DNA of 64,000 nt from Burkholderiales bacterium (GCA_016703325.1 JADJCH010000014.1:17931-81930); one strand, 5' to 3'; counted from the first letter of the stretch, positions 18,399 through 46,397 are shown. Numbers and translations are program-made. Notes: a model not told the origin generated them from the sequence alone.

Positions 18399-19859
<1,461 letters not shown>

Positions 19860-20045: not shown

Positions 20046-21338
20046 ATGTCCGACGTTCCGGTCCCGCCGCCTCCTGCCGCGTCCGCCACGCCAGCCGCTC
20101 CGGGTCGTACCCCTGAGGTGCGGCCATCCGCGCCGCTGCCGTTGGAGGATGCCGGCCCCTCCTCCTGGCTGGACAGCCTGCTGGCCGATCCGCCGCAGCC
20201 CGCTGCATCGTCCGAAGGTGCAGGCCTGCGTTGGCCTGCCTGGCGTGCACGTGCCGACGAGGCCACCGATTCCCGCCACCTCACGCCCTCCGGGCTGGAG
20301 CGACCGCGCCTGCAGGCCCGGGTCCGCTCGGATTGGCTGGAGGTGTGCCAGGGCGGCCTGCTGCTGCGCACCGTGCTGCTGGTGCACGGGGTCTTCGGCC
20401 TCGGCATGGCGCTGGGCTCGCCCGGCCTGGCGGACTGGCTGTTCAACCTTTCCTTCGCCACGCTGGGCTTGTTGCCGGCCACCCTGGCCTGGCTGGCCGG
20501 ATTGTGCGCGGCCCGGCAGATCTGGGGCCTGTGGCCGGCCTGGGCGCAATGGGGGGGTGTGGGGGCCTGGGGCGCCGCCTGCGCGTTGGCAGGGCAGGGG
20601 CTTTTGATGCTGTTCAGCCGCCGGCTGGGTGACGATGCGGGCGCGGCCCTGCCCACCTTGGCCTGGCTGGCGGTGGGTCTGATCGGCACGCTGCTGGCCA
20701 CGGTGGTGCTGTACTGGCTGCACCTGCGCCAGCGCCTGCGGTTGCCGGCAGCCACCCAGGCCCGGCTGGCAGAGTTGCAGTCGCGCATCCGGCCGCACTT
20801 CCTCTTCAACGCCCTCAACAGCGCGATTGCGCTGGTGCGGGTGGATCCGCATCGGGCCGAAGAGGTGCTGGAGGACCTGTCTGAGCTCTTCCGGGCCGCA
20901 CTGGCCGATGCGGGTGAGCAGGTGTCGCTGGGCGAGGAGATCGAACTCGCGCGGCGCTACCTGGCCATCGAGCAGGTGCGCTTCGGTCGGCGCATGCGGG
21001 TGCATTGGGCCCTGGACGGAGCGGCCGCACCGGCACGGGTGCCATCCCTGCTGTTGCAGCCGCTGGTGGAGAACGCGGTGCGCCACGGCGTTGAACCTGC
21101 CGATCGAGGCGGGGACCTGCACATCCGGACCCAGGTGCACCGGGGTCAGGTGCTGATCTCGATCACCAACACCCTGCCGCAGGGGCCGACCCGCCGGGGG
21201 CAGGGCATGGCGCTGCACAACGTGCGCGAACGCCTGTTCCTGCTGCACGATGTGACGATGCGCTTCGAGGCCGGCGAGATCGAAGGCGGCCGGTACCGGG
21301 TGCGCATCGCCGTGCCGCTGCAGTCCGCGCAGGCCTGA
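20046..21338 (+). CDS. LytS/YehU-type sensor histidine kinase, AlgZ/FimS-like
   Basis: [47 protein letters not shown]; adjacent to argH and a LytTR regulator. Confidence 0.9.
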
Positions 21339-21350
21339 GAAGGAGGGCTT

Positions 21351-22247
21351 GTGGAGCCACTGCGGGTGTTGATCGTCGACGACGAGGAACTGGCCCGGCT
21401 GCGCCTGCGCAGCCTGCTGGCCGACTGCATCAGCCCGCCCGGTCGCTTGGTGGGCGAGGCGGCCCATGCGGCCCAGGCGCTGCAGTGGCTGTCCCAGCAG
21501 CGCGCCGACCTGCTGCTGCTGGACATCCACATGCCGGGTCTGGACGGCATGCAGCTGGCCCGCCGCCTGCAGCAGACCTCACCCCGGCCGGCGGTGGTCT
21601 TTGTCACCGCTCATGCGGAACATGCGCTGCAGGCCTTTGAGGTTCAGGCCATCGACTACCTCACCAAGCCGGTGCGCCGCGCCCGCCTGCAGGAGGCGTT
21701 GGCCCGGGCGGCCGCCTGGCTCGAGCGTGACCGGGGAAGCGTGCAGCCTGCTGCTGCCCCATGGGCTGCGTCGGCCGGGGCGACGGTCGCAGGGCCGGTG
21801 GCTTCCCGGTCGGCGATGGAACCGGTGGAATCCGCGGGGGCACCGGTGCTGGTCGTCACCGATCGCGGCGAACGCGTGCGCGTCCCGTTGTCCGAGGTGC
21901 TCTACCTCAAGGCGGAGCAGAAGTACGTCACCCTGCGCACCGCCCGGCGCAGCTGGTTGCTGGACGACTCGCTGGCCGAGCTGGAAGCCCGCCTGGAAGG
22001 CCAGCCCTTCGTGCGCATCCATCGCAACGCCCTGGTGGCGCTGCATGCGGTGCAGTCCCTGGAGCGCCACCGCGGGGCGGAGCCGGCGCCTACGGGGTTC
22101 GACGCCGATGCCCCGGCCACCGATTTCGGCGCCGAGGGCCCGTCAGAGGCTGGTGGCTGGGCGGTGCACATCGCCGCGACCGGCGAGTGGCTGGCCGTGT
22201 CGCGGCGCCAGCTGGCGCAGGTGCGCAGCGCGCTGGATCGGCTCTGA
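21351..22247 (+). CDS. LytTR response regulator, AlgR-like
   Basis: [30 protein letters not shown] receiver domain; YLKAEQKYV and [10 protein letters not shown] LytTR motifs. Confidence 0.92.
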
Positions 22248-22682
22248 GCTGCTGCGTCGCCGGCGCAGGTGGCCGCCGGGTTTGAAGAATCCAGGTGTGA
22301 CCAGACGAATGAGATTGCAGCCTGGTCGGCGCATCTTGTAAGCAATTCAGTCGCGGTCGACCGGATCCCGGCTTCGCAATACTTCACGAATGGCGGGTCT
22401 CGGAGGGTGCGCCTCTCTGGGAAAACCGCCCATTCCCGACCGACCCGGGCCGGCAGTGAAAAAGTACAACCTGACACGGCAGGGCTGCCGGGTGCAGGCA
22501 TCCTTCATCCATCGAATCCATCGATCTGCATGCAACAGGCCGGAAGCTTGATTTCTCCGGCCCTGGGGAAGCCTTTTCGCCGATTTCCACCAGAAGTTTC
22601 GATGAGGATTTTCGGGTTTCTCTGAAAGTACTGATTCGATGTCTTTTTTTCGGTTTTTTTGGGTATCACAAAGGGGAATTCC

Positions 22683-24389: not shown

Positions 24390-24467
24390 ACGCAAACCTG
24401 CAGCATCGGTGCATTTCGTGCGACTTTGGACCGGGATGCACCGTTGCTGTCTGGATCGTCATCTTCG

Positions 24468-24512
24468 GGCCGGCCGGAGCGAGGCACAGTTCTCGCTGGC
24501 CGGCCGATTTTT
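24468..24512 (+). terminator. Candidate intrinsic terminator between the two lipoprotein genes
   Basis: GGCCGGCC..AGCGAG-loop-CTCGCT-GGCCGGCC followed by GATTTTT. Confidence 0.45.
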
Positions 24513-24551
24513 GAGTGGGGCCAGGCCACTGTCACGCATGGGAGTCTCTCG

Positions 24552-25838
24552 ATGAAGCTTGGAAACGGTTGCACGACACGCATGCGCCTGCGCCGCCTGT
24601 CACTGCTGATGGCTGCTGTGATGGCGGTCAGCGCCTGCGGCGGTGGGGGTGGATCTTCAGCAGAAGCGCCGGCTCCCGGGCCGTCGCCGGCGCCTGCGCC
24701 CTTCCCGACGGTGGATCCGAGCAACCTGTGCGAGAACCTGGTGCAGGATCAGGCGGCGCATCCGATGACGGCGGTGACCAAGCCGACTCTGCTGGGCAGC
24801 TACACCGACCCGAACTTCCTGACCACCGTTCGCCGCATCACCGATGCGAAGGCGCAGTTCAATGCCGACTACGCGAAGCCGGTGTACTCGACGATGCCTG
24901 CCTGGAATGCGGATGAAACCTACCTGATCCTGTATGTGCCGGGGCAAGGCCACAAGCTGTTCAACGGCAAGACCTACGCCTTCATCCGCAACCTGGAGAT
25001 CGACACCGCGGACATCGAGCATGTCTACTGGTCGTCCACCGACCCGGACCTGCTGTACTACCCCAACGGCCGTGCACTGATGGTGTACCACCCGAGCACC
25101 GACCAGTCCGAGACGCTGAAGACCTTCTCCGCCACGGACGTCAGCTTCGGTGGTGACCCGATCTATGGCGACTGGTCGTCCAACCTGTTCGGGTTCCAGT
25201 CCAACTCCGGACCCTTGCTGTGGTGGCGTACGTCGGGCGCGTTGGTCAACGGCCCGACCGGCACTGGCGCGCCGCAGATTTCGTCGTCCGGCGCCTACTA
25301 CGTGTTCGGCCAGAACCTCTATGACACATCGACCAACGCGCTGGTTCGGGCGATGACGATCAACGCCACCGAACACGGCGCCACCGGTCGGCTGGCCAAT
25401 GGCGACGACATCTGGGTGTCCACGCAGTTTGACCTGCCCGACGGCAGCAACGGCAACCTGATCGTCGAAAACCTGCGCACCGGCGCGGTCACGACGGTGA
25501 TCGGTGAAGCCAACGGCTGGGACTACCCGCGGGTGGGCACCCATGTGTCGGCCCATGCGGTCAAGAACCCGGGTTGGGTGGCGGTGTCGATGACGGGCAA
25601 CACCGAAGGGACCGACTACCTGGACCGTGAGATCGCCCTGGCCAACGTCAACACCGGAGTGGTCTGCCGGGTGGCGCACCACCGCTCCTATGGACAGGAA
25701 GGGAACATCGTCTACTGGGCCGAGCCGCATGTGAACATCAGCCCCAGCGGCACGCGCATGATCTTCGCCTCCGACTGGAACAACGGCTCCACCGTGGACA
25801 CCTACGTGGTCGAACTGCCCAGCTACCAGCAACCCTGA
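24552..25838 (+). CDS. Uncharacterised lipoprotein, paralog of the C-terminal domain of 22683-24389
   Basis: Lipobox VSA-C, short PAP linker, then a collinear match (NLC...HPM...TDP...[10 protein letters not shown]...[10 protein letters not shown]...[20 protein letters not shown]). An alternative start lies about 30 nt downstream. Confidence 0.82.
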   Translation: MKLGNGCTTRMRLRRLSLLMAAVMAVSACGGGGGSSAEAPAPGPSPAPAPFPTVDPSNLCENLVQDQAAHPMTAVTKPTLLGSYTDPNFLTTVRRITDAKAQFNADYAKPVYSTMPAWNADETYLILYVPGQGHKLFNGKTYAFIRNLEIDTADIEHVYWSSTDPDLLYYPNGRALMVYHPSTDQSETLKTFSATDVSFGGDPIYGDWSSNLFGFQSNSGPLLWWRTSGALVNGPTGTGAPQISSSGAYYVFGQNLYDTSTNALVRAMTINATEHGATGRLANGDDIWVSTQFDLPDGSNGNLIVENLRTGAVTTVIGEANGWDYPRVGTHVSAHAVKNPGWVAVSMTGNTEGTDYLDREIALANVNTGVVCRVAHHRSYGQEGNIVYWAEPHVNISPSGTRMIFASDWNNGSTVDTYVVELPSYQQP

Positions 25839-33598: not shown

Positions 33599-34306
33599 TC
33601 AACGCTGGGCCGCACTGTGCCCGGGCGCCGGGCCGGCCTCGAACTCCACTGCGATGCGGATGCGCGATCGCACCGGCTGGCCCTGCCACTCCCCGGGCGT
33701 GAAGCGGGCGGCCAGGAAGGCCTGCCGGGCGGCCTCCTGGAAAGGCGGCGGCAGGTCCACCTCCGATGACTCCACCCGCACCCGCTGCACGGCGCCGTGC
33801 TCGTCGATGAACAGCGTCAGCACGCCTTGCCAGTGGCCTTCAGGGGCTCCTTCGGGATAGGCCAGCAGCACCTCGGCGCTGGGCTCCGGTCCGCGGGTGA
33901 GGGAGCTGCGCGGCAGGTACTCGTCGCCCGCCTCACCCGGGCCGGGCGGGGCGGTGAGGGAGGCTGGTTCGGTCTGTGCCGTGGCCTCCGGCGCGGAGGT
34001 TGGTTTGGCAGCCTGCAGCGGGGCGTCCGGGTCTGCTGTAGCCTGCGCCGGCTGTTCCCGATCTGTCCTGGTGGCAGGTTCGGGAGAAGGCAGTGGGGCC
34101 TCGGCCAGCGGTCTCAGCGCCACCGCCACCTGCCGGGCTGCACGGGGCGCTGCGGTGGGCGTTCCGCCGCCCGGAGCCTGGCCCCACAGGCCCCAGGCTC
34201 CCAGCACCAGCAGGTGCAGCCATGCAACGGTGATCCACAGGGCGAACGGCGGGGGGCGCGGTGTGCCGTGGCCAGTGGTCGGGCTCAGTCGGTCAACTCT
34301 CGCCAC
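33599..34306 (-). CDS. TonB-like protein (TM anchor, Pro/Ala-rich spacer, TonB C-terminal domain)
   Basis: LWITVAWLHLLVL anchor; YP...VLTLFIDEHGAVQRVRV...FQEAARQAFLAARFTPG...VRSRIRIAVEF; GTG start overlaps the pilY1 stop. Confidence 0.75.
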   Translation of the reverse strand: MARVDRLSPTTGHGTPRPPPFALWITVAWLHLLVLGAWGLWGQAPGGGTPTAAPRAARQVAVALRPLAEAPLPSPEPATRTDREQPAQATADPDAPLQAAKPTSAPEATAQTEPASLTAPPGPGEAGDEYLPRSSLTRGPEPSAEVLLAYPEGAPEGHWQGVLTLFIDEHGAVQRVRVESSEVDLPPPFQEAARQAFLAARFTPGEWQGQPVRSRIRIAVEFEAGPAPGHSAAQR

Positions 34307-37300
34307 GAGGTGCGCCGGGCGTTGAAGATGGTGCTGCCGGCCACTCCGGTGGAGTCCTGCTGGCCGCCCGTCTGGTCGGCAAAGTTGAGGAAGGCCTTGA
34401 TGTTGCCCTGGCCATCGTCGAAGCGTTCGATGCCGACGATCATCGGGTTGGCGTAGGTGGCCATGCCGGTGACCGCACCGGTACTGATGTTGAACTGGTA
34501 CAGCGTTGAGCTGCCGCCGCCGCTGCACATGTCGGCCGATGGGCTGGTGCCGACAAAGGCCAGGATGCCGTTGCCCAGCGCCGTGGGGTTGATGGCGACC
34601 CGCTGGTTGGTGGGCAGTTCGGCATACCAACCCTTCTTGGTGGACCAGTCCACCGTCTGGGTGCTGTCGGTGGACAGGGTGATCTGGGTCAGTTGGGCCT
34701 TGCCTGCGGTGGTGGTCAGGTCACCCAGCCCGCTGCCTTCGCTGCTGCTCCAAGTGTCCTTGATCGAATAGATGCCCTGCTGGGAGCTGTCGCTCACGTC
34801 GGGGTCACCCAGGTAGCGGCCGGTGCCGAAGGAGATCACCGGAATGCTGCCGCTGCCGGTGGCCACTTCGTTGAGTGCCGGCTTGGTGGTGATCGGGCGG
34901 CCCGGTGTGCGGGCCAGCAACTGAGCCGCAACCTGGGTCACGCTGCCTGCAGCGTAGGTCGGCACGAAGCGCCAGAAGTTGCCCTGCATGTCGCCGGCGT
35001 AGAAGCGCAGCGCGGTGTTGTCAGAGCTGCTGGCCACCCAGGCATTGAGCTTCATGAGGTTGCTGGGTGCGGTGGCGCTGCCCACGCCGGTCTTGACCTC
35101 GCTGAGCAGCGTGCCGGTGAAGGCATCGAGCACGAAGAGGCGACCTTCGCCGTCGCCGGCATCGCCATTGATGCCGTTGCTGTTGTTCACGCCGGAGGTG
35201 AAGGCCACGACCCATTTGCCATCGGCGCTCTTGGTGATGACGGGATTGCCCATCGCCAGGCCGAGGTTGGCGTTGTGGATCACCTTGCCGTAGCCGGTGC
35301 CCGCCAGGTTCGGGAAGTGGCCAAACTCCCACAGCACCGCAGGCGATGCCGGGTCGGTGATGTCCAATGCGTAGTAAGCGCGGCCGCCCGCCCCCAGGCC
35401 GCCCACCAGGATGGTGCGCCATTCACCGCTCACATAGATGTCCGCCACCACCGGTGTGCCGTCGACGAAGTAGCGGTGGTTTCCGCCGTAGCTGCTGTCG
35501 GCCAGTTTCCAGAGGTTGGGGATCACCGCCGTGGGCACAAAGGCCCAGCGCTCGCTGCCGGCCGGGGTGGTGGTGGAGCCGCTCACGCTGCTGTCCACCT
35601 GGAAGGCGTGCAGCATGCCGTCGTTGGCGGCCGCAAACACCATCTTCATCCGGCTGGCCTTGCTGCTGACGTAGCTGTTGTAGCCGGCGTCGGCGTAGCT
35701 GAAGGGGGGCTTGCCGGCGTAGGCGGGGGCGGCGTTGACGATGTCGCCCAGCGCAGAACTGCGGCCGCGGAACAGCAGGGGTGTCGCCGTGGTGTTGTCG
35801 TTTTCGTAGGTGCTGGCGCCGCGCAGGTACTGGACCAGGTTGTCGCCGGTGACGAGATTCCGGTCTCCTTCACTCATCATTTCGTTGGTGCTGCATTGAC
35901 TCAGCCGTTCGCTGGCGCTGCTGCAGCGGCCGTCGAAAGACGCATTCAGCGCCGTGCTGCCGGTGTTGGACAGGTTGGCGTAGCTGAACTCACCCTTGGT
36001 ACCGTTCTGGTTGAACCAGATGTCGCGGCTGCCGCCCGCGGACAGTCGGGCGTCAAGTCGGGCCGCGGCGCTCCACACCGGTGTGCTGCTGCCCATCGTG
36101 GGCACGGTGTACGTGTTGGTGCTGGGGTTCAGCTGGTACTGGTAGGCCTTGAGGTCCCCGGACCAGGTACCGGAGGTGTAGCTGGGCAGAAACACCCAGC
36201 GGTCCGCGTCCACCGGAGTCTGTGTGCTGGAGGTGATGGCCGCAGCAGAGGCCGAGACGTCGCCAATGCGTCGGAAGGTGTCTGCAATTGCCGAGGCCAC
36301 TGCGGCGTGGTTGGAGGCCGAGTAATACTGGCCGCGCCCGTTCACGGCTGCGTGCCAGAGGTCGTCGATGTGGGTGGCGTCGCCTTCCGAGCCGGTATTG
36401 ATCGTGCCGGTGGGTACCGGCCAGGTCTTGCTGCCGGTGGCGCTCTTCAGGTCGGCCCAGTCGCTGGGTCGCAGGTAGCCGTTGAGGCCCAGTCCCAGGG
36501 TGAACAGGTTCATGTGCTGCCGGGTGTTCGGGTCGGGCAGCACCCCCTTGGCGTCGTCGCCGGCAACGGGCGGCAGCTCGTCGGCCAGGTCGGTGCGCAG
36601 GTCCTCCTGGTAGTAGTACTGCGCCACATCGGCCAGGGTGGGGGAGGCGTTGGCGCCGTTGTAGGGGCGCGGCTCGGCGGCATCCGCATCGCCGATCTGG
36701 GTGCGGCCGTCCAGTGCGTAGACCTGGCCGGTGTCGCTGTTCCAGTAGCCATCGGTGGTCAGCAGGGCATAGGCGCGCTGGCAGGTGTACTGGATCGGGG
36801 CGCTGCTGCCGGTGGTGGCGTAGTAGCGCCCCACCCGCGACAGGGTGCGGCGCAGGGGGGTGCTGCTGGAGGCCGAGGAGGTGTACAGCAGGTCATAGAA
36901 GCTGGAGCGCTGGGTGCCGCTGAACTCGCCCGTGCCGAGGAACCAGGATCCGGACGACGTGCTGTCGCTGATGCGGGTGAATCCGAGGCGGATCTCCGCG
37001 CCCACGCCTCGCATCGCCTTGCCGGCGGCCGACCGCATCGCGAGCTGGCGGGTGCGGTAGTAGGAGTACCAGTTGGCGTACTTTTGCGCGAGCGTTGACG
37101 TGGCCTCGATGGTCACACTGGTAAAGCGCCCGGACTCCGACCGATTCATGCAGTAGCGGTAGGTGTCGGAGCTGGTGTCGACGTTGCCGTTGACGTCATA
37201 GCGCCAGTCGCGCGGGGTGGCGGTGCTGTCGTTGAACACGTAGTAGGTGGAGCCAGCCAGGCTCACCGCGCCGGTGCGGGCAAAGCCATCGGTCCAGGCC

Positions 37301-37641
37301 GCCGTGAAGGTGGAGTCTCCAGAGGAGCTGCCGTCGGCTTTCGGCGGCGCGGGGTATTCCTCGTTGGGGTCGAAGGCGACCCCGTTGCACCAGGCCGAGA
37401 GCATGCCGTGGGTCGGCGCGCCGTTCAGGTCATCGGGCATGTAGTCCCGCGTCATCGATCCGGAGTTGTCCAGGATGAACATGACGTTCGGCTTGGGGTT
37501 GGTCGCCAGGCTCAGCGGCGCCTGGGCGACGCTGGCCCACTGGGACGAGGCCGGAGCGCTGAACAGCCCGCAGACGGCCAATGCAGCGAACAGGCTCGGG
37601 GTTCGCTGCAGGACAGGGCGGCGGGGGGCGGCGGCGGACAT
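34285..37641 (-). CDS. pilY1: Type IV pilus tip adhesin PilY1/PilC (vWA-like N-terminus, beta-propeller C-terminus)
   Basis: PNVMFILDNSGSM, LGDIVNAAP, AANDGMLHAF, GRAYYALDITDP, YAGDMQGNFWRF, GTGRYL. Confidence 0.93.
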   Translation of the reverse strand: MSAAAPRRPVLQRTPSLFAALAVCGLFSAPASSQWASVAQAPLSLATNPKPNVMFILDNSGSMTRDYMPDDLNGAPTHGMLSAWCNGVAFDPNEEYPAPPKADGSSSGDSTFTAAWTDGFARTGAVSLAGSTYYVFNDSTATPRDWRYDVNGNVDTSSDTYRYCMNRSESGRFTSVTIEATSTLAQKYANWYSYYRTRQLAMRSAAGKAMRGVGAEIRLGFTRISDSTSSGSWFLGTGEFSGTQRSSFYDLLYTSSASSSTPLRRTLSRVGRYYATTGSSAPIQYTCQRAYALLTTDGYWNSDTGQVYALDGRTQIGDADAAEPRPYNGANASPTLADVAQYYYQEDLRTDLADELPPVAGDDAKGVLPDPNTRQHMNLFTLGLGLNGYLRPSDWADLKSATGSKTWPVPTGTINTGSEGDATHIDDLWHAAVNGRGQYYSASNHAAVASAIADTFRRIGDVSASAAAITSSTQTPVDADRWVFLPSYTSGTWSGDLKAYQYQLNPSTNTYTVPTMGSSTPVWSAAARLDARLSAGGSRDIWFNQNGTKGEFSYANLSNTGSTALNASFDGRCSSASERLSQCSTNEMMSEGDRNLVTGDNLVQYLRGASTYENDNTTATPLLFRGRSSALGDIVNAAPAYAGKPPFSYADAGYNSYVSSKASRMKMVFAAANDGMLHAFQVDSSVSGSTTTPAGSERWAFVPTAVIPNLWKLADSSYGGNHRYFVDGTPVVADIYVSGEWRTILVGGLGAGGRAYYALDITDPASPAVLWEFGHFPNLAGTGYGKVIHNANLGLAMGNPVITKSADGKWVVAFTSGVNNSNGINGDAGDGEGRLFVLDAFTGTLLSEVKTGVGSATAPSNLMKLNAWVASSSDNTALRFYAGDMQGNFWRFVPTYAAGSVTQVAAQLLARTPGRPITTKPALNEVATGSGSIPVISFGTGRYLGDPDVSDSSQQGIYSIKDTWSSSEGSGLGDLTTTAGKAQLTQITLSTDSTQTVDWSTKKGWYAELPTNQRVAINPTALGNGILAFVGTSPSADMCSGGGSSTLYQFNISTGAVTGMATYANPMIVGIERFDDGQGNIKAFLNFADQTGGQQDSTGVAGSTIFNARRTSWRELTD

Positions 37642-37690
37642 GGACGGACTCCGGGGGGTAAGCGATCGGGGTGCTGGCATCAACACTGCA

Positions 37691-38389
37691 TCAGAAGTGC
37701 ACCACCGTGTCGGTGTAGCTGACGGTGTTGCGTGCGCCCTTGGCGCGCACCACGATGCGGTAGTACTGCGTCAGCACCGAGCTGCCGAAGCGCTGCGAGC
37801 TGGCGTAGGTCAGATCGTCGCGCTGGGCGGCGGTGGTGACGGTGGCCGACATCGGTCGGGCGCACTGCAGCGTGCCACCGCTGGCGTTGGGATCGCCTTC
37901 GGCATCGCACAGCCGCAGGATGAGAAATCGTGCCGTCACCTGGTTGGGCAGGCTGTCCGGGGTGTTGCGTGGCTTCAGGCAGTTTGCGTGGCCGCCACAG
38001 TCGTTGTTGTCCCAGTCAATGCGCACGTCGGCGCTGTTGCTGCTGGTGCCTGTGGGGTCGAGTCGGGCGGTCTGGCTGTTGCCGGTGCCGCCGTTGGCGT
38101 AGTAGCCGAGCGTGGTTTGGTTGCTGTGCAGGTCCGTGCCGCCGACCTTGCCGCTCAGCCAGACGATGGCCTGTCGGGTGGCTTCGTCTGCGGCCAGCAG
38201 CGTGTCCTGCTTGAAGCCCAGGTTGCCCAGCAGGATGCTGCCGGTGTCCACCGCACGGATCAGGGCCACCGCGGCCAGCGACAAGGCCACCAGCGTGATG
38301 AGCGAGAACAGCAGCGACACACCACGGCTGGCGCGGTGCAGGCCCGACCGGGTCCGGTGCATGAGGGGTGAAGGCGGATGCGGGGTCAT
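37691..38389 (-). CDS. pilX: Type IV minor pilin PilX
   Basis: RG-VSLLFSLITL prepilin without Glu+5, typical of PilX; position in the operon. Confidence 0.85.
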   Translation of the reverse strand: MTPHPPSPLMHRTRSGLHRASRGVSLLFSLITLVALSLAAVALIRAVDTGSILLGNLGFKQDTLLAADEATRQAIVWLSGKVGGTDLHSNQTTLGYYANGGTGNSQTARLDPTGTSSNSADVRIDWDNNDCGGHANCLKPRNTPDSLPNQVTARFLILRLCDAEGDPNASGGTLQCARPMSATVTTAAQRDDLTYASSQRFGSSVLTQYYRIVVRAKGARNTVSYTDTVVHF

Positions 38390-39612
38390 GACTGCCAGAG
38401 CATGTTGCGCAGCGGCACCAGGGTCTCGAAGACCTTGTAGCGGTAGTGCGTGTAGGGTTTGTCGGCCTCGCTGCTGTCCAGCCCGGGCACGCTCAAGCAG
38501 GCCCAGGTGCTGCCGTCCGGGCTCCAGACCGGGTAGTTGCCGGTGGCCGCCGGGCCGCTGCTGCAGGCCGTTTCATTGGGGCGTTCGTTGGTGACGGCCT
38601 GCTTCTCGAAGTGGCTGCTGCGGGCCACCACGGCCACCCGTATCGCCACGATCTGGGCCCATTCGGCCGGAGTGGTCGGTGGGGTGTTGTTCCAGGTGTC
38701 GGCGATGCGGTCGGCGTTGCTGTCCTTGCCGTAGACCGCTTGCAGGTCTACCACCTGCGGCTGGATCGCCTCGGCCGCCGGGGTGGCCGTGTTGGCGCTG
38801 CCGACGCTGAACTCGCGGGTGCTGCGCTGCAGCGAGTTGCCCGCAATCGAATAGACCCGGGTGCGCAGCACCCCGATGTTGAGCAGGTGGCTGCCGGGTG
38901 GGAAGTTCACCGCGGTGCTGTCCACGCCTGCGTAGAGGCTGCCCGGGTTGGCGGCGCCCTCGTGATTCCAGGGGCCATCGGTACCGGCTTCGTGTTTCAC
39001 CACACCCAGGGCCGCGTTGTCGCGGTCGGCGCTGGCGTTGAACAGGTTGCACCACAGGGTGTCGGAGAAGTTCTGCGGCACCGCCAGCAGCAGATCCCCC
39101 TTGCGGATGCCGTGGTGGATGGCGCCGTCCAGGTCGAACTGGGTGGCGTCGCGCCGGTGGCCCTTGAGTTTGAGCGGCAGCGCGAAGTCTTTGCCCGCGC
39201 TGGAATGCAGGGTCAGCTCGTCGGGGGCGCCGTCGTCGCCATTCCTGATCACCGCCGCGGTCAGACGGAACTCGCCGCGGCCTTCGGCCAGCAGCTTGTA
39301 GCGCACCAGGCAGCCAGCCCCACCACCGGCGGTGAGGCCGAAACCCGCGGCCTGCAGGTCACGCTGCAGGGTGTGCAGCGCCACCGCGCCATTGATCTGG
39401 GCGTCTGCACCGGAGGTGGTGTTGCGCTTCTGGCTGTCGAAGAGGATGGCCACCTGGGTGATCAGCAGCACCGCAAACAGGCCGATGGCCATGCCGACCA
39501 GCAGCTCGACCAGGGTCACGCCGCGCTGATCCATGCCAGGGCGCACGCCTGGGCGCACGCCTGGGTGTCGGCCGGGCCGGGCGTTCAAGGGGCGGTAGAC
39601 GCAGGCGGGCAT
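38386..39612 (-). CDS. pilW: Type IV minor pilin PilW
   Basis: QRG-VTLVELLVGMAIG, DLQAAGFG, QAVYGKDSNAD, IRVAVVARS, RYKVFETLVPLRN. Confidence 0.88.
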   Translation of the reverse strand: MPACVYRPLNARPGRHPGVRPGVRPGMDQRGVTLVELLVGMAIGLFAVLLITQVAILFDSQKRNTTSGADAQINGAVALHTLQRDLQAAGFGLTAGGGAGCLVRYKLLAEGRGEFRLTAAVIRNGDDGAPDELTLHSSAGKDFALPLKLKGHRRDATQFDLDGAIHHGIRKGDLLLAVPQNFSDTLWCNLFNASADRDNAALGVVKHEAGTDGPWNHEGAANPGSLYAGVDSTAVNFPPGSHLLNIGVLRTRVYSIAGNSLQRSTREFSVGSANTATPAAEAIQPQVVDLQAVYGKDSNADRIADTWNNTPPTTPAEWAQIVAIRVAVVARSSHFEKQAVTNERPNETACSSGPAATGNYPVWSPDGSTWACLSVPGLDSSEADKPYTHYRYKVFETLVPLRNMLWQS

Positions 39613-39617
39613 GGCAC

Positions 39618-40061
39618 TCAGCTGATGCTGTTGGCGTTGATCGAGGTGACGGTGCTGAAGGCGTGGCTGCCTTCGGAGGGCACCGACCAGCTGATGGAGA
39701 TCTCCACCCGCCCGCTGGCCTGCGGGGCAATGGTGTAGCTGGCACCGGGAAGGCGTGCAGCCAGGCGGGATGCCCAGGCCTGGCAATTGGCGTGCGAGGC
39801 GCAGTTGGCGGTGGTGTAGGACTGCAGGTTGGGGCTGTCCGCCCACATCGTGCCCACCAGATCGCTGGCCAGGTAGGCCGCATCGGCGCGGAACTTGGCG
39901 CCGGTGTTGGCCCGCATCATGGAAGCCTGCAGCCCGACCAGGCCGAGGGTGGCCAGGGTGAAGATCAGCAGGGCGATCAGCGCTTCGATCATCGCGAAGC
40001 CGCGGTGGCCACAGTTGATGCGATTGCAGCGATTGCGCTGCGGGGCTGGGGCGGGTTTCAT
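39618..40061 (-). CDS. pilV: Type IV minor pilin PilV
   Basis: RG-FAMIEALIALLIF...GLVGLQ...RADAAYLA. Confidence 0.87.
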   Translation of the reverse strand: MKPAPAPQRNRCNRINCGHRGFAMIEALIALLIFTLATLGLVGLQASMMRANTGAKFRADAAYLASDLVGTMWADSPNLQSYTTANCASHANCQAWASRLAARLPGASYTIAPQASGRVEISISWSVPSEGSHAFSTVTSINANSIS

Positions 40062-40089
40062 CTGGGGTCTCACGCAGGGGGCTGGGTGA

Positions 40090-40740
40090 TCAGGAGGCCG
40101 GGCAGGCACGGGCGTCGTCGCTGCGCAGGCCGTGGATGCAGCTGCGCACACCGCCGCCGGCATCGATGCGCACCTGCAGCTTCACCGAGGGGCTGGTGGG
40201 GTGGGTGATCTCGATGCAGCGGATCGGGCTCGCGTTGGCGGGCGAGCCCAGGCTGTTGAACATCACCTGGGTAGAAGAGGCGGTGGCTGCACAGCGCTCG
40301 GTCTTCACCTGAACCGTCACGTCCGGGAAACCGTTGCCCTTGGCCTGCTTGTCCAGGATCTGCGGTGCCGCACTGCCGCCGGCGGCCTGTTCGCACTTGC
40401 CGGCCGGGCTGGCCAGGCTCACCACCCAGGACGCGTTGGTGCTGGAGAGGGCGCAGGCGGAGGTCAACTGGCCCGGCTCGTTGGTCGGGTTGGTCGGGTT
40501 GGTGACCAGGGAGAAATACACGTTCTGGTTGCGCCGCACCGCCTCGGCACGGGCCTTCTGCAGCCCGGTGCTGATCGATTCGGCCGCGCTGCGCACCTGC
40601 AGGTTGCGCAGCCACTCGGTCATGCTGGGCGCCAGCGTGACCAGCAGCACGCCGATCATCACCAGCACCACCATCAGCTCGATGGGGGTGAAGCCCCGGT
40701 GGCTCCAGTGGCTGCGGCGGGCGGTTGTTCGGTCAGTCAT
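40090..40740 (-). CDS. fimT: FimT/FimU (GspH-like) minor pilin
   Basis: RG-FTPIELMVVL, ARAEAVRRNQNV; alternative GTG start at 40752. Confidence 0.85.
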   Translation of the reverse strand: MTDRTTARRSHWSHRGFTPIELMVVLVMIGVLLVTLAPSMTEWLRNLQVRSAAESISTGLQKARAEAVRRNQNVYFSLVTNPTNPTNEPGQLTSACALSSTNASWVVSLASPAGKCEQAAGGSAAPQILDKQAKGNGFPDVTVQVKTERCAATASSTQVMFNSLGSPANASPIRCIEITHPTSPSVKLQVRIDAGGGVRSCIHGLRSDDARACPAS

Positions 40741-40745
40741 GGGCT

Positions 40746-41207
40746 TCAGCACTCGCTGCCCTTGACCAGCCAGCAGGTCTTGGGTGATGAGTTGTAGTCT
40801 GTGGTCTTGAAGTAGCGGGTGGTCTGACTGCCGTTGTGGTCGATGCGGTAGGTGTGGGTTCCGCCGCCCGCGGTGCTGCTGGTGGCCTGGAGGTAGTAGC
40901 CCTGGTCGGTGTTGGTGAGCGTGCAGGTGACGGTGAAGTATTTCAGCCCGGTGGGCACCGCCGGGCCGCAGGTGGTGGCGCCGTACTTGCGGTTGTCCTG
41001 GTAGTACTGCTCCATCACCACCCGCTGGTTGCTCAGCTGGGTGAAGGCCTCGGGCAGGCGGCCGCGGCGCAGGTAGTCGGTGTACGAGGGCAGGGCCACC
41101 GCGGCCAGGATGCCGATCACCGCCACGGTGATCATCAGCTCGATCAGCGTGAAGCCCCCGCTGCGGTGCAGCGCGCAGGTGGGGCGAATACGGGCAGGGA
41201 CGGCCAT
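40746..41207 (-). CDS. pilE: Type IV minor pilin PilE
   Basis: [39 protein letters not shown]. Confidence 0.9.
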
Positions 41208-41236
41208 GGCGGATCTTTTCAGTTCGGGACGGCCCG

Positions 41237-41307
41237 ATGCTAGGCCGCCGCCTGCCGCCTGTCAGCCGGGTGGGTTGCCGCTTGTCGGGTGGCGCCGTCC
41301 GCTCGTC
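41237..41307 (-). promoter_or_regulatory. Predicted sigma70 promoter of the pil operon with two LytTR/AlgR-type direct repeats
   Basis: Minus strand CTGACA(41265-41260)-N17-TAGCAT(41242-41237); plus-strand CCGCTTGTC (41278-41286) and CCGCTCGTC (41299-41307) separated by exactly 12 bp. Confidence 0.6.
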
Positions 41308-41326: not shown

Positions 41327-44300
41327 TCAGCGGAAGTCCCGCGATGTGGTCGTCAGCCGCCCCAGCCAGGCGCTCAGGTCCACCAGCCGGCGCGCCACCA
41401 GGTGGGTGACGCCGTCGCGCTTCTGCCAGGTGCCCACCACGCCCAGCAGGCGTGCACCGAGCAGGGCCTGGCGCTGGGCCTCGCGCACGTCCTTCCAGAC
41501 GATGACGTTGACCGGGCCGGTCTCGTCCTCCAGCGTCACGAAGATCACCCCTTTGGCGGTGGCCGGCTGCTGGCGGGTGACCACCAGGCCGCAGGCGCGC
41601 ACCACCCGGCCGTCGGCGGTGCGCGCCAGTTGGGCGGCGCTGCGCACACCCTTGGCGGCCAGGCGCTCGCGCAGCAGCGCCAGCGGGTGGCGGCGCAGCG
41701 TCAGGCCGGTGGCGGCGTAGTCCAGCGCGATGGCCTCGCCCTCCGGCGCCTCGATCAGCTGCAGCTGGGCGCGCTCGGCCGATTCGTCCACCGGTGCCCG
41801 GCGCAGCAGGTTGTCGGCGCCACCGGCACCTCCCGCGCGGGGGGCGGCCGCGGCCCAGACCTGCTCGCGGCGGTGCCCGGCCAGGCGGGCCAGCGCATCG
41901 GCCCGGGCCAGGCGCTGCAGTTCCGGCGGACCCAGCCCGCTGCGCAGCGCCAGGTCCTGCACGTCGGCAAAGGGCCGCTCGGCGCGGGCGGCCAGCAGCT
42001 GCCGGGCCACCGCCTCGGACAAGCCACTGACTTGATGCAGCCCCAGGCGCACCGCCGGTCGCCCCTTCAGCGTTCCGGCCTCCCCCTGCCTTCCTCCCCC
42101 CTTTGACAAAGGGGGGCCGGGGGGGATTTCCCCCTCCAACGCCCCCTCCAGCGAGCTCTCCCACCCGCTCACCGTCACATCCACCGGCCGCACCTCCACG
42201 CCGTGGCGGCGCGCGTCCTGCACCAGCTGCGCCGGGCCGTAAAAGCCCATCGGCTGCGAGTTCAGCAGCGCAGCCAGGAAGGCGGCCGGTTCGTGCTGCT
42301 TGAACCAGGCGCTGAACCAGGCCAGGATGGCGAAGCCGTAGGCGTGGCTCTCCGGGAAGCCGTATTCGCCGAAGCCCTGGATCTGCCGGAAGATGCCCTC
42401 GGCGAACTCGCGCGCATAGCCACGCTCCACCATGCCCTCGACGATGCGTTCGTGGAAGTGGTGCACCCCGCCCTTGCGCCGCCAGGCGGCCATGGCGCGG
42501 CGCAGGCCGTCCGCCTCGCCGGGGGAGAAGCCGGCGGCGATCATGCACACCTGCATCACCTGCTCCTGGAAGATCGGCACCCCCAGCGTGCGCGCCAGCG
42601 CGGCGTTGAGCTGCGGGTAGGGCGAGTCCGACTTCTCCCGGCCCTGCTTGCGGCGCAGGTAGGGGTGCACCATGCCGCCCTGGATCGGCCCGGGGCGCAC
42701 GATGGCCACCTCGATCACCAGGTCGTAGAACTTGTCCGGCCTGAGCCGCGGCAGCATGCTCATCTGCGCCCGGCTCTCGATCTGGAAGGTGCCCACCGTG
42801 TCGGCGCGCTGGATCATGGCCCAGGTGGCCGGGCAGTCGCGCGGAATGTCCTGCAGCAGCCAGGCCGGGCGCCCATGCCAGGCGTTGGCCAGCGCCAGCG
42901 TCTTGCGCAGCACGGTGAGCATGCCCAGGGCCAGCACGTCCACCTTGAGCAGGCCCAACGACTCCAGATCGTCCTTGTCCCACTGGATGACGCGGCGGCC
43001 TTCCATCGCCGCCGGCTCGATCGGCACCAGCCGGGAGAGTTTGTCGCGTGCGATCACGAAGCCACCGCTGTGCTGCGACAGGTGGCGCGGAAAGCTCAGC
43101 AGCGTGGTGGTCAGCTCCAGCCACTGGCGCGTCAGCGGCGCCTGGGCGTCCAGGCCCTGCTCGGCCAGGCGTGCGCCCATCGCTTCGCGGCCGTCGAACC
43201 ACTGCTGCGACTTGGCTACCGCGTCCACCAGCAGCGCATCCAGCCCCAGCGCCTTGCCCACGTCGCGCAGTGCGCCGCGCACCCGGTAGGTGGCCACCGC
43301 GGCGGCCAGCGCGGTGCGCTGCGCGCCGTACTTGCGGTAGATGTACTGGATCACCTCCTCGCGGCGTTCGTGCTCGAAGTCCACGTCGATGTCCGGCGGC
43401 TCGCCGCGCTCGCGGCTGATGAAGCGCTCGAACAGCAGCGTGGTCTGCGTCGGGTCCACCTCGGTGATGCCCAGGCAGTAGCACACCGCCGAATTGGCCG
43501 CCGAGCCGCGGCCCTGGCAGAGGATGCCCTGGCCGCGGGCGAAGTTCACCACGTCGTAGACCGTCAGGAAGAAGGCCTCGTAGCGCATCTCGGCCACCAG
43601 CGCCAGCTCGTGTTCGATCTGGGCCCGCACGGCGGCCGGCACGCCCTGCGGGTGGCGGTGCGGCGGGTAGCGCCGCTGCGCGCCGGCCAGCGTCTCGTGG
43701 CGCAGCCAGCTGGCGGGGCTGTGCCCGGGCGGAACGACCTCCTGCGGGTACTCGTAGCGCAGTTCATCCAGGCTGAAGCTGCAGCCCTGGGCCAGGCGCA
43801 GCGTCTCGTCCAGCCAGGCGCGGCGGTACACCTGGGCCAGCGCCAGCCGGGAGCGCAGGTGCTGCTCGGCGTTGTGTGGCAGCAGCGCGCCGCAGTCGGC
43901 CAGCGCGGCGCGGTGGCGGATGGCGGTGAGCGTGTCCAGCAGCGGCTTGCGCGAGCGCACATGCATGCGCACGTCGCCCACCGCCACGATGGGGACACCG
44001 CTGGCCGCGCTGGCCGCGCGCAGCCACTCGCTGCGCAGGCTGTCGTCGGCATGGAAGAGCAGCGCCAGCGCCAGCCGGGCGCGTTCGCCGAAGGTGGCCG
44101 CCATCCAGTGCGCCTGGGCCCGCAGCGTGGCTGCGTCGTCCTGTTCGCGCGGGATCAGCAAGGACCAGCAGCCGGCCATGCCGCGCAGGTGCTGCCAGGT
44201 CGGGTCGCCGTCGGGATCCGGGGCGGTGGCAGTCGGGTCCAGGTCGTCCATGCCGAGCCGGTACGCCCCCTTGGCGCAGCGGCTGCGCGCCAGCGTGATC

Positions 44301-44761
44301 AGCTCGCACAGGTGGCCGTAGCCCTCCCGATGGCGGGCGATCAGCACCAGCCGGCCGCCCGGCGCGTGCTGCGCATCGGCGCCGGGCTGCAGCATGAAGT
44401 CCGCACCGATCAGCAGCTGCAGCGGGTTGCCGGCCTCGCGCTGGCGCTTGGCCTCCTCGTGTGCGCGCACCACGCCGGCCAGCGAGCACTCGTCGGTGAT
44501 TGCCAGCGCGGCGTAGCCCAGCTGGGCGGCGCGGGCCACCAGCTCCTCGGTGTGCGAGACGCCGTCCAGGAAGCTGAAGTTGCTGCGGCAGACCAGCTCG
44601 GCATAGGCCGGCAGGCCCCAGGGATGGCTGCTGTGGGGGGCGTCGCTGCCGGTGCCCGCCTCGGCGGCGACGCCGTTGGGCAGCAGCACGCCAGCCTGGC
44701 GCACGCCGGCCAGCGGCGGCGTGGGCACCGGCTCCCGGGCGGGTTGAGGGCTTTCGGGCAT
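41327..44761 (-). CDS. dnaE2: Error-prone DNA polymerase III alpha homolog DnaE2 (ImuC)
   Basis: YAELVCRSNFSFLDG PHP domain, GRGSAANSAV, EPPDIDVDFEH, KVDVLALGML, GFPESHA, OB-fold GVIFVTLEDETG. Confidence 0.96.
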   Translation of the reverse strand: MPESPQPAREPVPTPPLAGVRQAGVLLPNGVAAEAGTGSDAPHSSHPWGLPAYAELVCRSNFSFLDGVSHTEELVARAAQLGYAALAITDECSLAGVVRAHEEAKRQREAGNPLQLLIGADFMLQPGADAQHAPGGRLVLIARHREGYGHLCELITLARSRCAKGAYRLGMDDLDPTATAPDPDGDPTWQHLRGMAGCWSLLIPREQDDAATLRAQAHWMAATFGERARLALALLFHADDSLRSEWLRAASAASGVPIVAVGDVRMHVRSRKPLLDTLTAIRHRAALADCGALLPHNAEQHLRSRLALAQVYRRAWLDETLRLAQGCSFSLDELRYEYPQEVVPPGHSPASWLRHETLAGAQRRYPPHRHPQGVPAAVRAQIEHELALVAEMRYEAFFLTVYDVVNFARGQGILCQGRGSAANSAVCYCLGITEVDPTQTTLLFERFISRERGEPPDIDVDFEHERREEVIQYIYRKYGAQRTALAAAVATYRVRGALRDVGKALGLDALLVDAVAKSQQWFDGREAMGARLAEQGLDAQAPLTRQWLELTTTLLSFPRHLSQHSGGFVIARDKLSRLVPIEPAAMEGRRVIQWDKDDLESLGLLKVDVLALGMLTVLRKTLALANAWHGRPAWLLQDIPRDCPATWAMIQRADTVGTFQIESRAQMSMLPRLRPDKFYDLVIEVAIVRPGPIQGGMVHPYLRRKQGREKSDSPYPQLNAALARTLGVPIFQEQVMQVCMIAAGFSPGEADGLRRAMAAWRRKGGVHHFHERIVEGMVERGYAREFAEGIFRQIQGFGEYGFPESHAYGFAILAWFSAWFKQHEPAAFLAALLNSQPMGFYGPAQLVQDARRHGVEVRPVDVTVSGWESSLEGALEGEIPPGPPLSKGGGRQGEAGTLKGRPAVRLGLHQVSGLSEAVARQLLAARAERPFADVQDLALRSGLGPPELQRLARADALARLAGHRREQVWAAAAPRAGGAGGADNLLRRAPVDESAERAQLQLIEAPEGEAIALDYAATGLTLRRHPLALLRERLAAKGVRSAAQLARTADGRVVRACGLVVTRQQPATAKGVIFVTLEDETGPVNVIVWKDVREAQRQALLGARLLGVVGTWQKRDGVTHLVARRLVDLSAWLGRLTTTSRDFR
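42096..42129. repeat. Small palindromic (REP/SDR-like) element inside dnaE2
   Basis: CCCCCCTTT-GAC-AAAGGGGGG perfect 9-bp stem followed by CCGGGGGGGATTT. Confidence 0.6.
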
Positions 44762-44792
44762 GGGGAATCCAGCCGTCGGTTCAGCCGCCGGC

Positions 44793-46397
44793 TCAGCCGA
44801 ACAGGCCGTGCAGGAACCAGCGCGGCGCGGCGCCGTCGGCCTGTTCCAGGCTGCCCTGGCGCTCGCGGAAGATCCACCACAGCCGGCCGTCCTCGCCCAG
44901 GGCGACGTGGTAGTCCCGGCGCAGCAGCGCGCCGTCGTGCCAGCCGGTCTCGATGCGCTCCGGCCGGGTGAGCAGGCGCAGCGGCCGGCCGTCCAGCGCG
45001 GGGGTGTTGTCTGAGGCGCCGGCCGCGCCCGGTGGCCCCGGTGGCCCCGGCGGGGTCAGCGGGCGTGGTGCCTCCAGCAGCCAGGCCGGGCGCGGCGGGG
45101 CGGCCGCGGCTGCGGCGGCAGAGGAAGGCAGGCGGCGCTCTGCACCCTCCCGGCCGCCCGGCTGAGGGGCGGCGCGCTGCTGGGCCTTCTCCGGCCGGGC
45201 ATCCGGCTGCAGTTGCAGGCGCAGCAGGCGCTCGTCGCCCAGGCGGGCGCGCAGGCGGTCGATCAGGCCGGCCAGGGCGTCCTGGTGGCCGCGCTCGTCC
45301 GGCTGGTCCGGCAGGAGGGCCAGGGGGCGGCCGGCCTCGGCCTGCTGGCCGGTCAGCTCCAGGCGGAGGCTGTCCACCGCAGCGCTCAGCACCACCTGCT
45401 GCAGCCGCTCGCGCAGCAGGGTGATCAGGTGGGCTGCGTCGCGGCTGGGGGTGGTCAGCTGCAGCTCGATGAGCTGGTCCGGCAGGTGGCGGCGCGCGCC
45501 CTGTTCGTGGCGCAGGTTCAGGCGCAGCGCGGTGGCGGCCTGCCAGCGCCGCGCCAGCCAGCCGCACAGGCTGTGCACCAGCGGGGTGAGGGCGCCTTCC
45601 AGGTCGGCCACCGCCTCGGCGCGGTGGGGCAGCTCCAGGTCCAGCCGGCAGGCCTCGGGTGGTTCGTGCCAGCGGCGCGGGTCCGGGCGACGGCCTTCGG
45701 CCCGGTCCAGCGCGTCGACCCAGGCGGCAGCACCGCGGCGGTTCAGCCCGCTGCGGGGCAGGCGGTGCAGGTCGGCCAGGGTGCGGGCGCCCAGGGCCTG
45801 CAGCATCTCCAGGCTGTCGGCGGTGGCCACCTCATCGGGGGCCAGCCGCCCGGCCAGCCGTGCCAGCGCGAGCGGCTGCAGGCGCTGGCGGGTGCTCTCC
45901 AGCCGCAGGGCGTGGCGGTGCCGCTGGCCGGCCGCCGCCAGCCACTGGGCTGCCAGCGGGGTGGTGGCCAGGCTGCTGCGCACCTGCAGGCCGCTGCTGC
46001 GGGTGATCGCCAGGGCCCGGGTCCGCAGCCGCCGGATGCCGCCGAACAGGCGCAGGCTGGCACGCACCTCCAGCAGCAGCTGGTCCGGTGGGGCGGGGCA
46101 GATGTGGGGCGTCAGGCAGCCCAGCGCCAGGGCCAGCCGTTCCAGCGCAGCGGCCTCCCGGGCCGGGTCGCGTGCCAGCCGCAGCGCCTGGGGTGCCAGC
46201 GCCTCGGCCGTGTTGAGGCGTTGGCCCGGCTGCAGGTCCAGGGATCGCGCCGCAGCGTTGACGCAGCAGACCTGCCGGGCACCGCGGGCGTCGGCCGCCC
46301 AGACCAGCGCGGGGCAGGCGGCCAGCGGCTCAGGCCAGGGCCCCAGGGCGTCCAGCGGCAGGCGCGGCAGGTGCAGGCACAACCACAGGGCGTTCAT
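44793..46397 (-). CDS. imuB: Y-family polymerase-like ImuB
   Basis: LWLCLHLPRL, VNAAARSL, LLEVRASLRLFGG, PERIETGW.D...RDY. Confidence 0.9.
   Translation of the reverse strand: MNALWLCLHLPRLPLDALGPWPEPLAACPALVWAADARGARQVCCVNAAARSLDLQPGQRLNTAEALAPQALRLARDPAREAAALERLALALGCLTPHICPAPPDQLLLEVRASLRLFGGIRRLRTRALAITRSSGLQVRSSLATTPLAAQWLAAAGQRHRHALRLESTRQRLQPLALARLAGRLAPDEVATADSLEMLQALGARTLADLHRLPRSGLNRRGAAAWVDALDRAEGRRPDPRRWHEPPEACRLDLELPHRAEAVADLEGALTPLVHSLCGWLARRWQAATALRLNLRHEQGARRHLPDQLIELQLTTPSRDAAHLITLLRERLQQVVLSAAVDSLRLELTGQQAEAGRPLALLPDQPDERGHQDALAGLIDRLRARLGDERLLRLQLQPDARPEKAQQRAAPQPGGREGAERRLPSSAAAAAAAPPRPAWLLEAPRPLTPPGPPGPPGAAGASDNTPALDGRPLRLLTRPERIETGWHDGALLRRDYHVALGEDGRLWWIFRERQGSLEQADGAAPRWFLHGLFG

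Follow-up and report, generated by a model that had tools for sequence, protein, structure and literature searches.

A candidate AlgR-type tandem operator upstream of a minor-pilin/PilY1 operon in a Burkholderiales bacterium

Background

In Pseudomonas aeruginosa, the minor-pilin operon fimU-pilVWXY1E is activated by the two-component system FimS (AlgZ)-AlgR, and PilVWXY1 feed back on FimS (PMC8787478; PMC5979040). AlgR is both an activator and a repressor in this organism (PMC5790918). Its footprinted cores are CCGTTCGTC, CCGTTTGTC, CCGTGCGTC, CCGTTCATC, and CCGTTGGTC, the sites at fimU being degenerate (CCGTTTGGC and CCCTCGGGC) (PMC4064291; PMC4787818), and a review indicates that P. aeruginosa AlgR sites are generally not repeats spaced by 12 bp (PMC4064291). 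In E. coli, BtsR sites in the yjiY promoter read CCGCTCA, CCGCTTA, and CCACTCA at a period of 20 to 21 bp (PMC4847170). In the literature searched, AlgR was not described as controlling pili outside Pseudomonas, which is no proof of novelty; AlgR control of minor pilins has hitherto been studied in Pseudomonas only, with its degenerate fimU sites, and the comparisons reported here would extend it to a new lineage.

The locus described here lies in a 64-kb stretch of DNA (the window). It shares with the P. aeruginosa FimS(AlgZ)-AlgR circuit an orthologous regulator family, a minor-pilin/PilY1 operon as the target, and the cores CCGTTCGTC and CCGTTTGTC, which occur verbatim in the orthologous boxes. 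The two circuits also differ in that the P. aeruginosa operon begins with fimU and ends with pilE while the window operon begins with pilE, and in that the window boxes form a clean 21-bp tandem pair while the published P. aeruginosa fimU sites are degenerate. Unlike in the P. aeruginosa circuit, no Vfr-type site is evident at the window promoter. Other LytTR promoters (AgrA P2/P3, PlnC/D, ComE, and YpdB at yhjX) resemble the locus in having two imperfect repeats of 9 to 11 bp with a spacer of 11 to 13 bp, located just upstream of a weak -35 and paired with a REC+LytTR regulator. Unlike in these canonical promoters, the repeat pair is inverted with respect to transcription in the window and several relatives, and both operator orientations occur across species, at N32 versus N24/25 or N35 from the -10. 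The E. coli BtsS/BtsR (YehU/YehT) system at yjiY/btsT is similar in its homologous protein family, its half-site (CCG-Y-T-Y), and its 20- to 21-bp period. However, the BtsR operator ACC[G/A]CT[C/T]A lacks the 3' TC that window-type boxes keep, and the BtsR target is a pyruvate transporter rather than a minor-pilin operon.

Sequence comparison leads us to consider the two boxes a likely tandem LytTR operator of the AlgR class, through which the minor-pilin/PilY1 operon would be activated; the most likely cognate system is the pair of AlgZ/AlgR orthologues that the window encodes next to argH.

Operator boxes, promoter, and operon

Both boxes lie in the 119-bp gap that separates dnaE2 from the minus-strand pilE operon. 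The elements of this gap are as follows.

41299..41307, plus strand: box 1, promoter-distal, CCGCTCGTC, about -77 to -69 from the predicted transcription start site (TSS)
41278..41286, plus strand: box 2, promoter-proximal, CCGCTTGTC, about -56 to -48, followed by N35 and then the -10
41255..41263, plus strand: box 3, CCGCCTGTC, a third, weak copy of the repeat at a distance of 23 bp from box 2, lying over the -35 and spacer
41260..41265, minus strand: -35-like hexamer CTGACA, kept in the window and relative L081, CTGACG in relatives L083 and L212
41237..41242, minus strand: -10 hexamer TAGCAT, with T1, A2, A5, T6, and the two preceding C residues invariant in eight species
41216..41231, minus strand: transcript 5' end interval, with the TSS predicted at ~41229-41231 and RNA contigs ending at 41216 (sample X29) and 41213 (X32)

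The first-pass annotation of this DNA had reported two 9-bp repeats set 12 bp apart, and its coordinates and sequences proved exact: the spacer between box 2 and box 1 is exactly 12 bp, giving a 21-bp period. CCGCTTGTC and CCGCTCGTC agree at 8 of 9 positions in the same orientation, and the repeat can be extended to 15 nt (CCGCTYGTCGGGYGG). Against the AlgR core CCGTTCGTC, both boxes match at 8/9 positions (box 2 when compared with the CCGTTTGTC variant). The AlgR core is read on the plus strand, whereas pilE is encoded on the minus strand; read in the direction of pilE, box 1 is GACGAGCGG and box 2 is GACAAGCGG, in the order GACGAGCGG-N12-GACAAGCGG, so that the pair is inverted relative to transcription. 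Such an arrangement is unusual for LytTR promoters and counts against the reading as an AlgR operator. The operator is free of variants in all sequencing runs that cover it.

Box 3 was considered as a conserved third site and rejected, as the eight-species alignment described below shows it to be absent beyond the nearest relative: it is kept only in L081 (80% identity) and lost in six other relatives. Its half-site scores about 9.3 bits with our weight matrix, and it is probably nonfunctional.

The promoter element CTGACA-N17-TAGCAT (minus strand, 41265..41237) is the sole sigma70-like match in 1.1 kb and had no counterpart in 50 shuffles. In Leptothrix, the -35 is degenerate (TTGCCC or CTGCCC), and a poor -35 in the relatives implies a need for activation, as at an activator-dependent promoter. 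The operon and its upstream neighbor comprise the following genes.

41327..44761, minus strand: dnaE2 (DnaE2-type polymerase), co-directional upstream neighbor, given for context only
40746..41207, minus strand: PilE-like type IV minor pilin, 153 aa, first gene (Pfam N_methyl and ComP_DUS; homologues named PilE)
40090..40752, minus strand: minor pilin of the GspH/FimT-FimU family, 220 aa (Pfam GspH and N_methyl; also in relatives)
39618..40052, minus strand: PilV, start approximate (NCBIfam TIGR02523; N_methyl)
38386..39579, minus strand: PilW, start approximate (Pfam PilW and N_methyl; orthologue of 397 aa)
37691..38389, minus strand: gene in the PilX position, 232 aa (operon position; tblastn relatives in 25 loci; no Pfam match)
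34285..37686, minus strand: PilY1, 1,133 aa, last gene of the transcript (Pfam T4P_PilY1)

The order pilE-(fimT-like)-pilV-pilW-pilX-pilY1 is conserved in betaproteobacterial loci, while in gammaproteobacterial loci pilY1 comes before pilE, as in Pseudomonas. The ComP_DUS match of the PilE-like pilin, which corresponds to the fold of the Neisseria DNA-uptake-sequence receptor, is common to all of its homologues. This pilin also has a long leader, with 17 residues ahead of the Gly-Phe cleavage motif (G|FTLIEL).

Chance tests and conservation of the operator

In DNA of 70% GC, 9-mers of this kind can arise by chance, as the first-pass annotation had cautioned. That caveat stands for single boxes, since the bare 9-mer occurs twice in the 64-kb window against an expectation of 2.4 and single boxes alone thus prove nothing, but it does not extend to the pair, which exceeds both shuffles and control windows. 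Sites matching at 8/9 positions or better number 122 in the 64 kb, and the window boxes are the sole same-orientation pair among them at 20 to 22 bp. For comparison, we assembled 80 pilE loci from species-representative genomes (~775 kb in total) and scored same-orientation pairs, 20 to 22 bp apart, of a degenerate core derived from the literature (C-C-G-[TC]-[TG]-[CT]-G-T-C). Within the 270 nt upstream of the pilin, box pairs were present in 12 of 76 loci, compared with 0.28% of 2,532 control windows drawn from the same loci (binomial p = 5e-18). In the spacing histogram (9 to 45 bp), 11 counts fell at exactly 21 bp and no more than one at every other spacing; likewise, 11 of the 20 same-orientation site pairs in the pilin-upstream regions were at 21 bp.

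A position weight matrix (PWM) built from the aligned operators of other species, with the window left out, gave the window site 25.2 bits, and none of 200 shuffles reached 25.1 bits. The second-best dimer in the 64 kb, at 21.9 bits, is formed by box 3 and box 2 at 23 bp, and the rest score at most 13.4 bits. The box pair is therefore not a chance repeat, as the PWM shuffles, the control windows, and the conservation among orthologues establish. The PWM also identified operators in seven more loci outside its training set, all at 21 bp, and eight strong dimers elsewhere in the ~775 kb, five of which are also at minor-pilin promoters. In the gamma-type loci L052 and L079, dimers lie upstream of fimU-like genes, the one in L079 being in a divergent fimT/fimU-type gap, where the known sites of P. 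aeruginosa also lie, and in L003, L010, and L012, dimers lie at the start of pilY1.

The aligned operators have the consensus (t)G-CCG-Y-T-Y-R-TC, and the 3' TC of the boxes is conserved at 94% and 90% in pilin operators. Operators of the comparative set use exactly the core variants footprinted for AlgR in P. aeruginosa, the variants CCGTTCATC and CCGTTGGTC recurring in the L014/L017 and L003 operators. An operator of at least 18 bits is present in 15 of 42 confirmed pilE-first loci and in 0 of 12 loci in which pilE is not first. A strong operator thus occurs in just about one-third of the pilE-first loci, and this counts against the reading as an AlgR operator. A scan of a metagenome collection with the pattern ABS1-N(5-30)-ABS2 returned chance matches only, and a recurrent 33-mer from that scan had no prepilin genes within 4 kb.

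The 20- to 22-bp AlgR-type dimers that lie inside the operon, at or just before pilY1, are at 10038-10069 in L003, 9302-9335 in L010, and 9350-9403 in L012. Since dimers of this kind recur in three genera, some species may have a further promoter within the operon that controls pilY1 separately; the window has none ahead of pilY1.

Conservation was followed more closely in seven close relatives whose pilins are 56 to 80% identical, among them Leptothrix cholodnii SP-6, L. discophora, and Leptothrix sp. BB-4, which together with the window gave an eight-species alignment over 146 window positions. Only 22 of these 146 columns are invariant, yet 11 of the 18 box positions are (p = 1.2e-6; 6/9 in box 1 and 5/9 in box 2), and the 24 positions of the boxes and the -10 hold 15 of the 22 (p = 1.3e-9). 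In all eight species the spacer has the same length, 12 bp, and box 2 is separated from the -10 by N35 +/- 1. Each of the seven relatives carries the 21-bp dimer (16.6 to 27.1 bits), and the orthologous box 1 is the canonical AlgR core at 9/9 positions, CCGTTCGTC or CCGTTTGTC (GACGAACGG or GACAAACGG on the coding strand). An alignment of pilE upstream regions had been suggested as a check on the first reading, and the 21-bp-period motif indeed turned out to be conserved in sequence, period, and position across Betaproteobacteria.

A further suggestion was that the T-to-C change shared by both window boxes reflects shifted specificity. This was not borne out, as 37% of the clade's half-sites have C at position 4, T and C coexist at this position within single operators (L003, L012, and L046), and the orthologous box 1 has T. 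By these comparisons, the change is ordinary degeneracy.

The gene upstream of pilE was called as dnaE2 in four relatives (the three Leptothrix genomes and the Burkholderiales metagenome-assembled genome [MAG] L211); the contigs of L081 and L083 end within the upstream gene, and L212 has no upstream sequence. In none of the 80 scanned loci was dnaE2 found beside pilE, and the operator still accompanies pilE there. Since the operator stays with pilE despite unrelated upstream neighbors, it is to be assigned to the pilin operon rather than to the gene upstream.

The distance from the operator to the -10 also depends on orientation. Where the boxes point at the gene, N32 (range, 30 to 33) separates the proximal box from a -10-like hexamer in 8 of 12 loci, and the box lies about 60 to 66 nt from the ATG. 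Inverted boxes fall into a short class with N24/25 (L005, L008, L021, L030, and L042) and a long class with N35, one helical turn further out, comprising the window lineage and the Polaromonas locus L056. Within each orientation class, the box-to-(-10) distances are fixed.

In L005 (~5905-5925), L007, and L021, a conserved element in the -10/+1 region (GTGACAATTTGTGAC, GTGACACTTTGTCAC, or CCACAATTTGTGACA) lies just downstream of the proximal box. Its carriers are two Variovorax species and one gammaproteobacterial MAG, and it is absent from the window; it could be the site of a second regulator, perhaps with CRP/Vfr-like half-sites.

Transcript evidence

The organism is present in wastewater and activated-sludge samples. 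In metatranscriptome X29, two contigs (41216-39449 at a depth of 83.7 and 39349-34228 at a depth of 51.2) cover the operon from pilE to 57 nt past the pilY1 stop codon, while dnaE2 has a depth of 0 to 5 and depth is zero from 41236 on. The contrast between an operon depth of 51 to 84 and a dnaE2 depth of 0 to 5, together with the boundary at 41216, implies that the operon has its own strongly used promoter in the gap rather than depending on read-through from dnaE2. The 5' boundary of the operon RNA lies no more than about 15 nt from the TSS predicted near 41230, although these data are undirected assembled contigs, so that a contig end is a lower bound on the 5' end only. The promoter call of the first-pass annotation agrees with both lines of evidence, the -10 being invariant in eight species and the RNA boundary at 41216 fitting a TSS near 41230. 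RNA of algZ and algR is present in X29 as well.

Contigs from X1 (DNA type) and from X10, X2, and X3 (RNA type) span the gap at uniform depth and are uninformative on the TSS. In low-depth biofilm runs, gap depth equals dnaE2 depth, which fits DNA carry-over or weak read-through. The X29 contig end at 34228 bears Illumina adapter sequence and may mark where the operon transcript ends at its 3' side; a TonB_C-domain open reading frame downstream of the operon has separate, lower coverage in this sample.

The argH-linked kinase and regulator

The window encodes one candidate kinase/regulator pair, next to argH.

18399..19829, minus strand: argH, divergent from the kinase gene, start approximate (translation)
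20046..21338, plus strand: AlgZ/FimS-like histidine kinase, 430 aa (PF06580; no GAF or 5TMR match)
21351..22247, plus strand: AlgR-like REC+LytTR response regulator, 298 aa (Pfam; D58 aligns with D54 of AlgR)

Compared with P. aeruginosa AlgR (database entry P0121, which bears that name), the window regulator scores 145 bits at 37% identity over its full length, and its stretch KYVTLR and another of 11 residues are identical to AlgR. Against E. coli BtsR it scores 93 bits at 29% identity; AlgR itself scores 89 bits against BtsR (30% identity). The kinase likewise scores 151 bits (39% identity) against P. aeruginosa AlgZ and 103 bits (34% identity) against BtsS. BtsS of E. coli carries 5TMR-LYT and GAF modules and is 561 aa long, whereas the 430-aa window kinase has only His_kinase and a weak HATPase_c among its Pfam matches. 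The best NCBIfam match of the regulator is the BtsR model, below cutoff, and in a comparison with solved structures it matched the generic LytTR domain 3D6W and not AgrA. In IMG, the cluster-mates of the regulator and the kinase are labelled AlgR and AlgZ.

The divergent arrangement of argH and the kinase/regulator genes is common to the window, L. discophora, Sphaerotilus mobilis, and P. aeruginosa. In P. aeruginosa, hemCD lies downstream of algZR; in the window, Leptothrix, and Sphaerotilus, by contrast, hemC-hemD is not downstream of the pair, and unrelated large proteins are found there. The hemCD linkage is specific to Pseudomonas and not essential to the AlgZ/AlgR family. By score and by argH synteny, the argH-linked pair groups with AlgZ/AlgR and not with BtsS/BtsR, and the earlier proposal of a candidate AlgZ/AlgR pair is upheld as orthology by sequence, domain architecture, and argH synteny. 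The pair lies about 20 kb from the operator; because a single L. discophora contig has the corresponding loci about 240 kb from each other, we regard this proximity as incidental and give it no weight. The AlgZ/AlgR pair adjoins the operon in none of the 80 loci, which counts against the proposed circuit. No further LytTR or PilR-type regulator was found among the other annotated window genes, and a search with the PWM for an autoregulatory operator dimer in the argH-algZ gap of the window found none.

Relative to P. aeruginosa AlgR, which lacks it, the window regulator has an acidic and Pro-rich insertion of about 30 aa in its LytTR domain (residues ~239-268), as well as a longer interdomain linker (residues ~124-165). 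Regulator length in close relatives ranges from 252 to 311 aa, so that the insertion/linker region is variable.

Proposed mechanism and alternatives

In the mechanism that we propose, the AlgZ/FimS-like kinase would phosphorylate the adjacent AlgR orthologue (21351-22247), and the phosphorylated regulator would be the most likely binder of the boxes. The boxes would span positions of about -77 to -48 relative to the TSS (~41230) of a sigma70 promoter (CTGACA, TAGCAT) that depends on an activator, where two LytTR domains bound to the two boxes on one helix face could activate transcription, as FimS-AlgR does at fimU-pilVWXY1E. The promoter would then drive a transcript of about 7 kb, pilE-gspH/fimT-pilV-pilW-pilX-pilY1. 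PilVWXY1 might also feed back on the kinase.

Several alternatives bear on this proposal, and the general absence of a 12-bp array at P. aeruginosa AlgR sites (PMC4064291) itself counts against an AlgR operator. The boxes could be a real operator that is bound by some other LytTR regulator, either BtsR/YpdB-like or a paralogue encoded outside the window. The BtsR repeats at yjiY do resemble the C-containing boxes of the window and have the same period, the regulator's best NCBIfam match is the (below-cutoff) BtsR model, and just 64 kb of the genome is visible. Nonetheless, we judge this explanation unlikely, given that the 3' TC (94% and 90%) is part of the AlgR core and absent from BtsR sites, that the orthologous boxes are exact AlgR cores ahead of a known AlgR target operon, and that the regulator scores 145 bits against AlgR versus 93 against BtsR and is accompanied by a kinase without GAF or 5TMR. 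It is more improbable still that the AlgR orthologue uses the operator mainly for repression or as a dual site, for example with box 3 shutting off the -35 at high levels of phosphorylated regulator. Box 3 does overlap the -35 and spacer, and AlgR both activates and represses in P. aeruginosa (PMC5790918), but box 3 is unconserved beyond the nearest relative, boxes 1 and 2 occupy an activator position, upstream of a -35 that is itself poor in relatives, and the operon is highly expressed in a sample (X29) that contains algZ/algR RNA.

Two further explanations set the LytTR reading aside. One is that the boxes are PilR (NtrC-type) sites serving a sigma54 promoter, as at major-pilin genes; the window sequence GGCGGCGGCCTAGC can be read as GG-N10-GC. 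The box ends TGTC/CGTC would also count for PilR, as they resemble the P. aeruginosa PilR repeat. Yet L083, L085, and L212 lack the -12 GC (TAACAT, TACGAT) while T1, A2, and T6 of the sigma70 -10 are invariant, and it is on this difference in conservation that the sigma54/PilR reading fails; in addition, both the 9-bp core and the strict period of 21 bp are those of LytTR/AlgR, and PilR/PilS were not found among the annotated window genes. We therefore consider it highly improbable. Scarcely credible, finally, is the suggestion that the repeats are an element of the dnaE2 3' end (a terminator or REP-like sequence) or a chance repeat in 70% GC DNA. The boxes do lie 20 to 50 bp past the dnaE2 stop codon, and the count of single 9-mers is at expectation. 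However, there is no terminator-like hairpin in the gap (RNA fold z = 0.17), chance is excluded by the shuffles and control windows, and in the 80-locus scan the operator accompanies pilE among unrelated neighbors with no dnaE2 found, although dnaE2 does precede pilE in close relatives of the Leptothrix group.

Implications

Returning to AlgR-dependent activation of the minor-pilin operon as the preferred explanation, our comparisons suggest that the known AlgR pilus-control circuit also exists in Betaproteobacteria, as judged from sequence. Comparative evidence places the circuit in many Betaproteobacteria, among them wastewater Sphaerotilaceae, Leptothrix, Variovorax, Polaromonas, Thiomonas, Chitinimonas, and Gallionellaceae. 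Less expected are the clean 21-bp architecture, the use of both orientations, each with its own phasing, and the breadth of conservation. The link to pili, rather than to alginate, is indicated as the conserved function of AlgZR. Tentatively, the minor-pilin/PilY1 operon may be the ancestral core target of AlgR in Beta- and Gammaproteobacteria, with alginate added later in Pseudomonas, and the operator may work in either orientation with its own -10 phasing; we consider this combined possibility less likely than not. If the operator does work in either orientation (N32 versus N24/25 or N35), activation would rely on phased bending of the DNA and not on one oriented contact between the regulator and RNA polymerase. 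The clean LytTR layout would also offer a better-defined operator for studying how AlgR dimers read DNA, as well as a testable regulon marker for pilus control linked to surface sensing in floc and biofilm formers of environmental importance.

Other features of the region

At 39981-40087, across the junction of the gspH/fimT-like gene and pilV, about 10 clustered substitutions are seen in all overlying metagenome and metatranscriptome contigs, making this a strain-variable patch within a region that is otherwise ~99 to 100% identical. Directly upstream of pilE, with no terminator between, is a mutagenesis cassette of an imuB-like gene (IMS family) and dnaE2 (41327-46397, minus strand), which is essentially silent in X29 (depth, 0 to 5). 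Directly downstream of algR, two tandem paralogous genes on the plus strand (22659-24389 and 24426-25838) encode large proteins with signal- or lipoprotein-like N termini and near-identical C-terminal halves, for which a weak InlB B-repeat-like match is the sole Pfam hit. The first of them (22659-24389) contains a long linker rich in Pro, Thr, and Ala and has an RNA depth of about 340 in X29.
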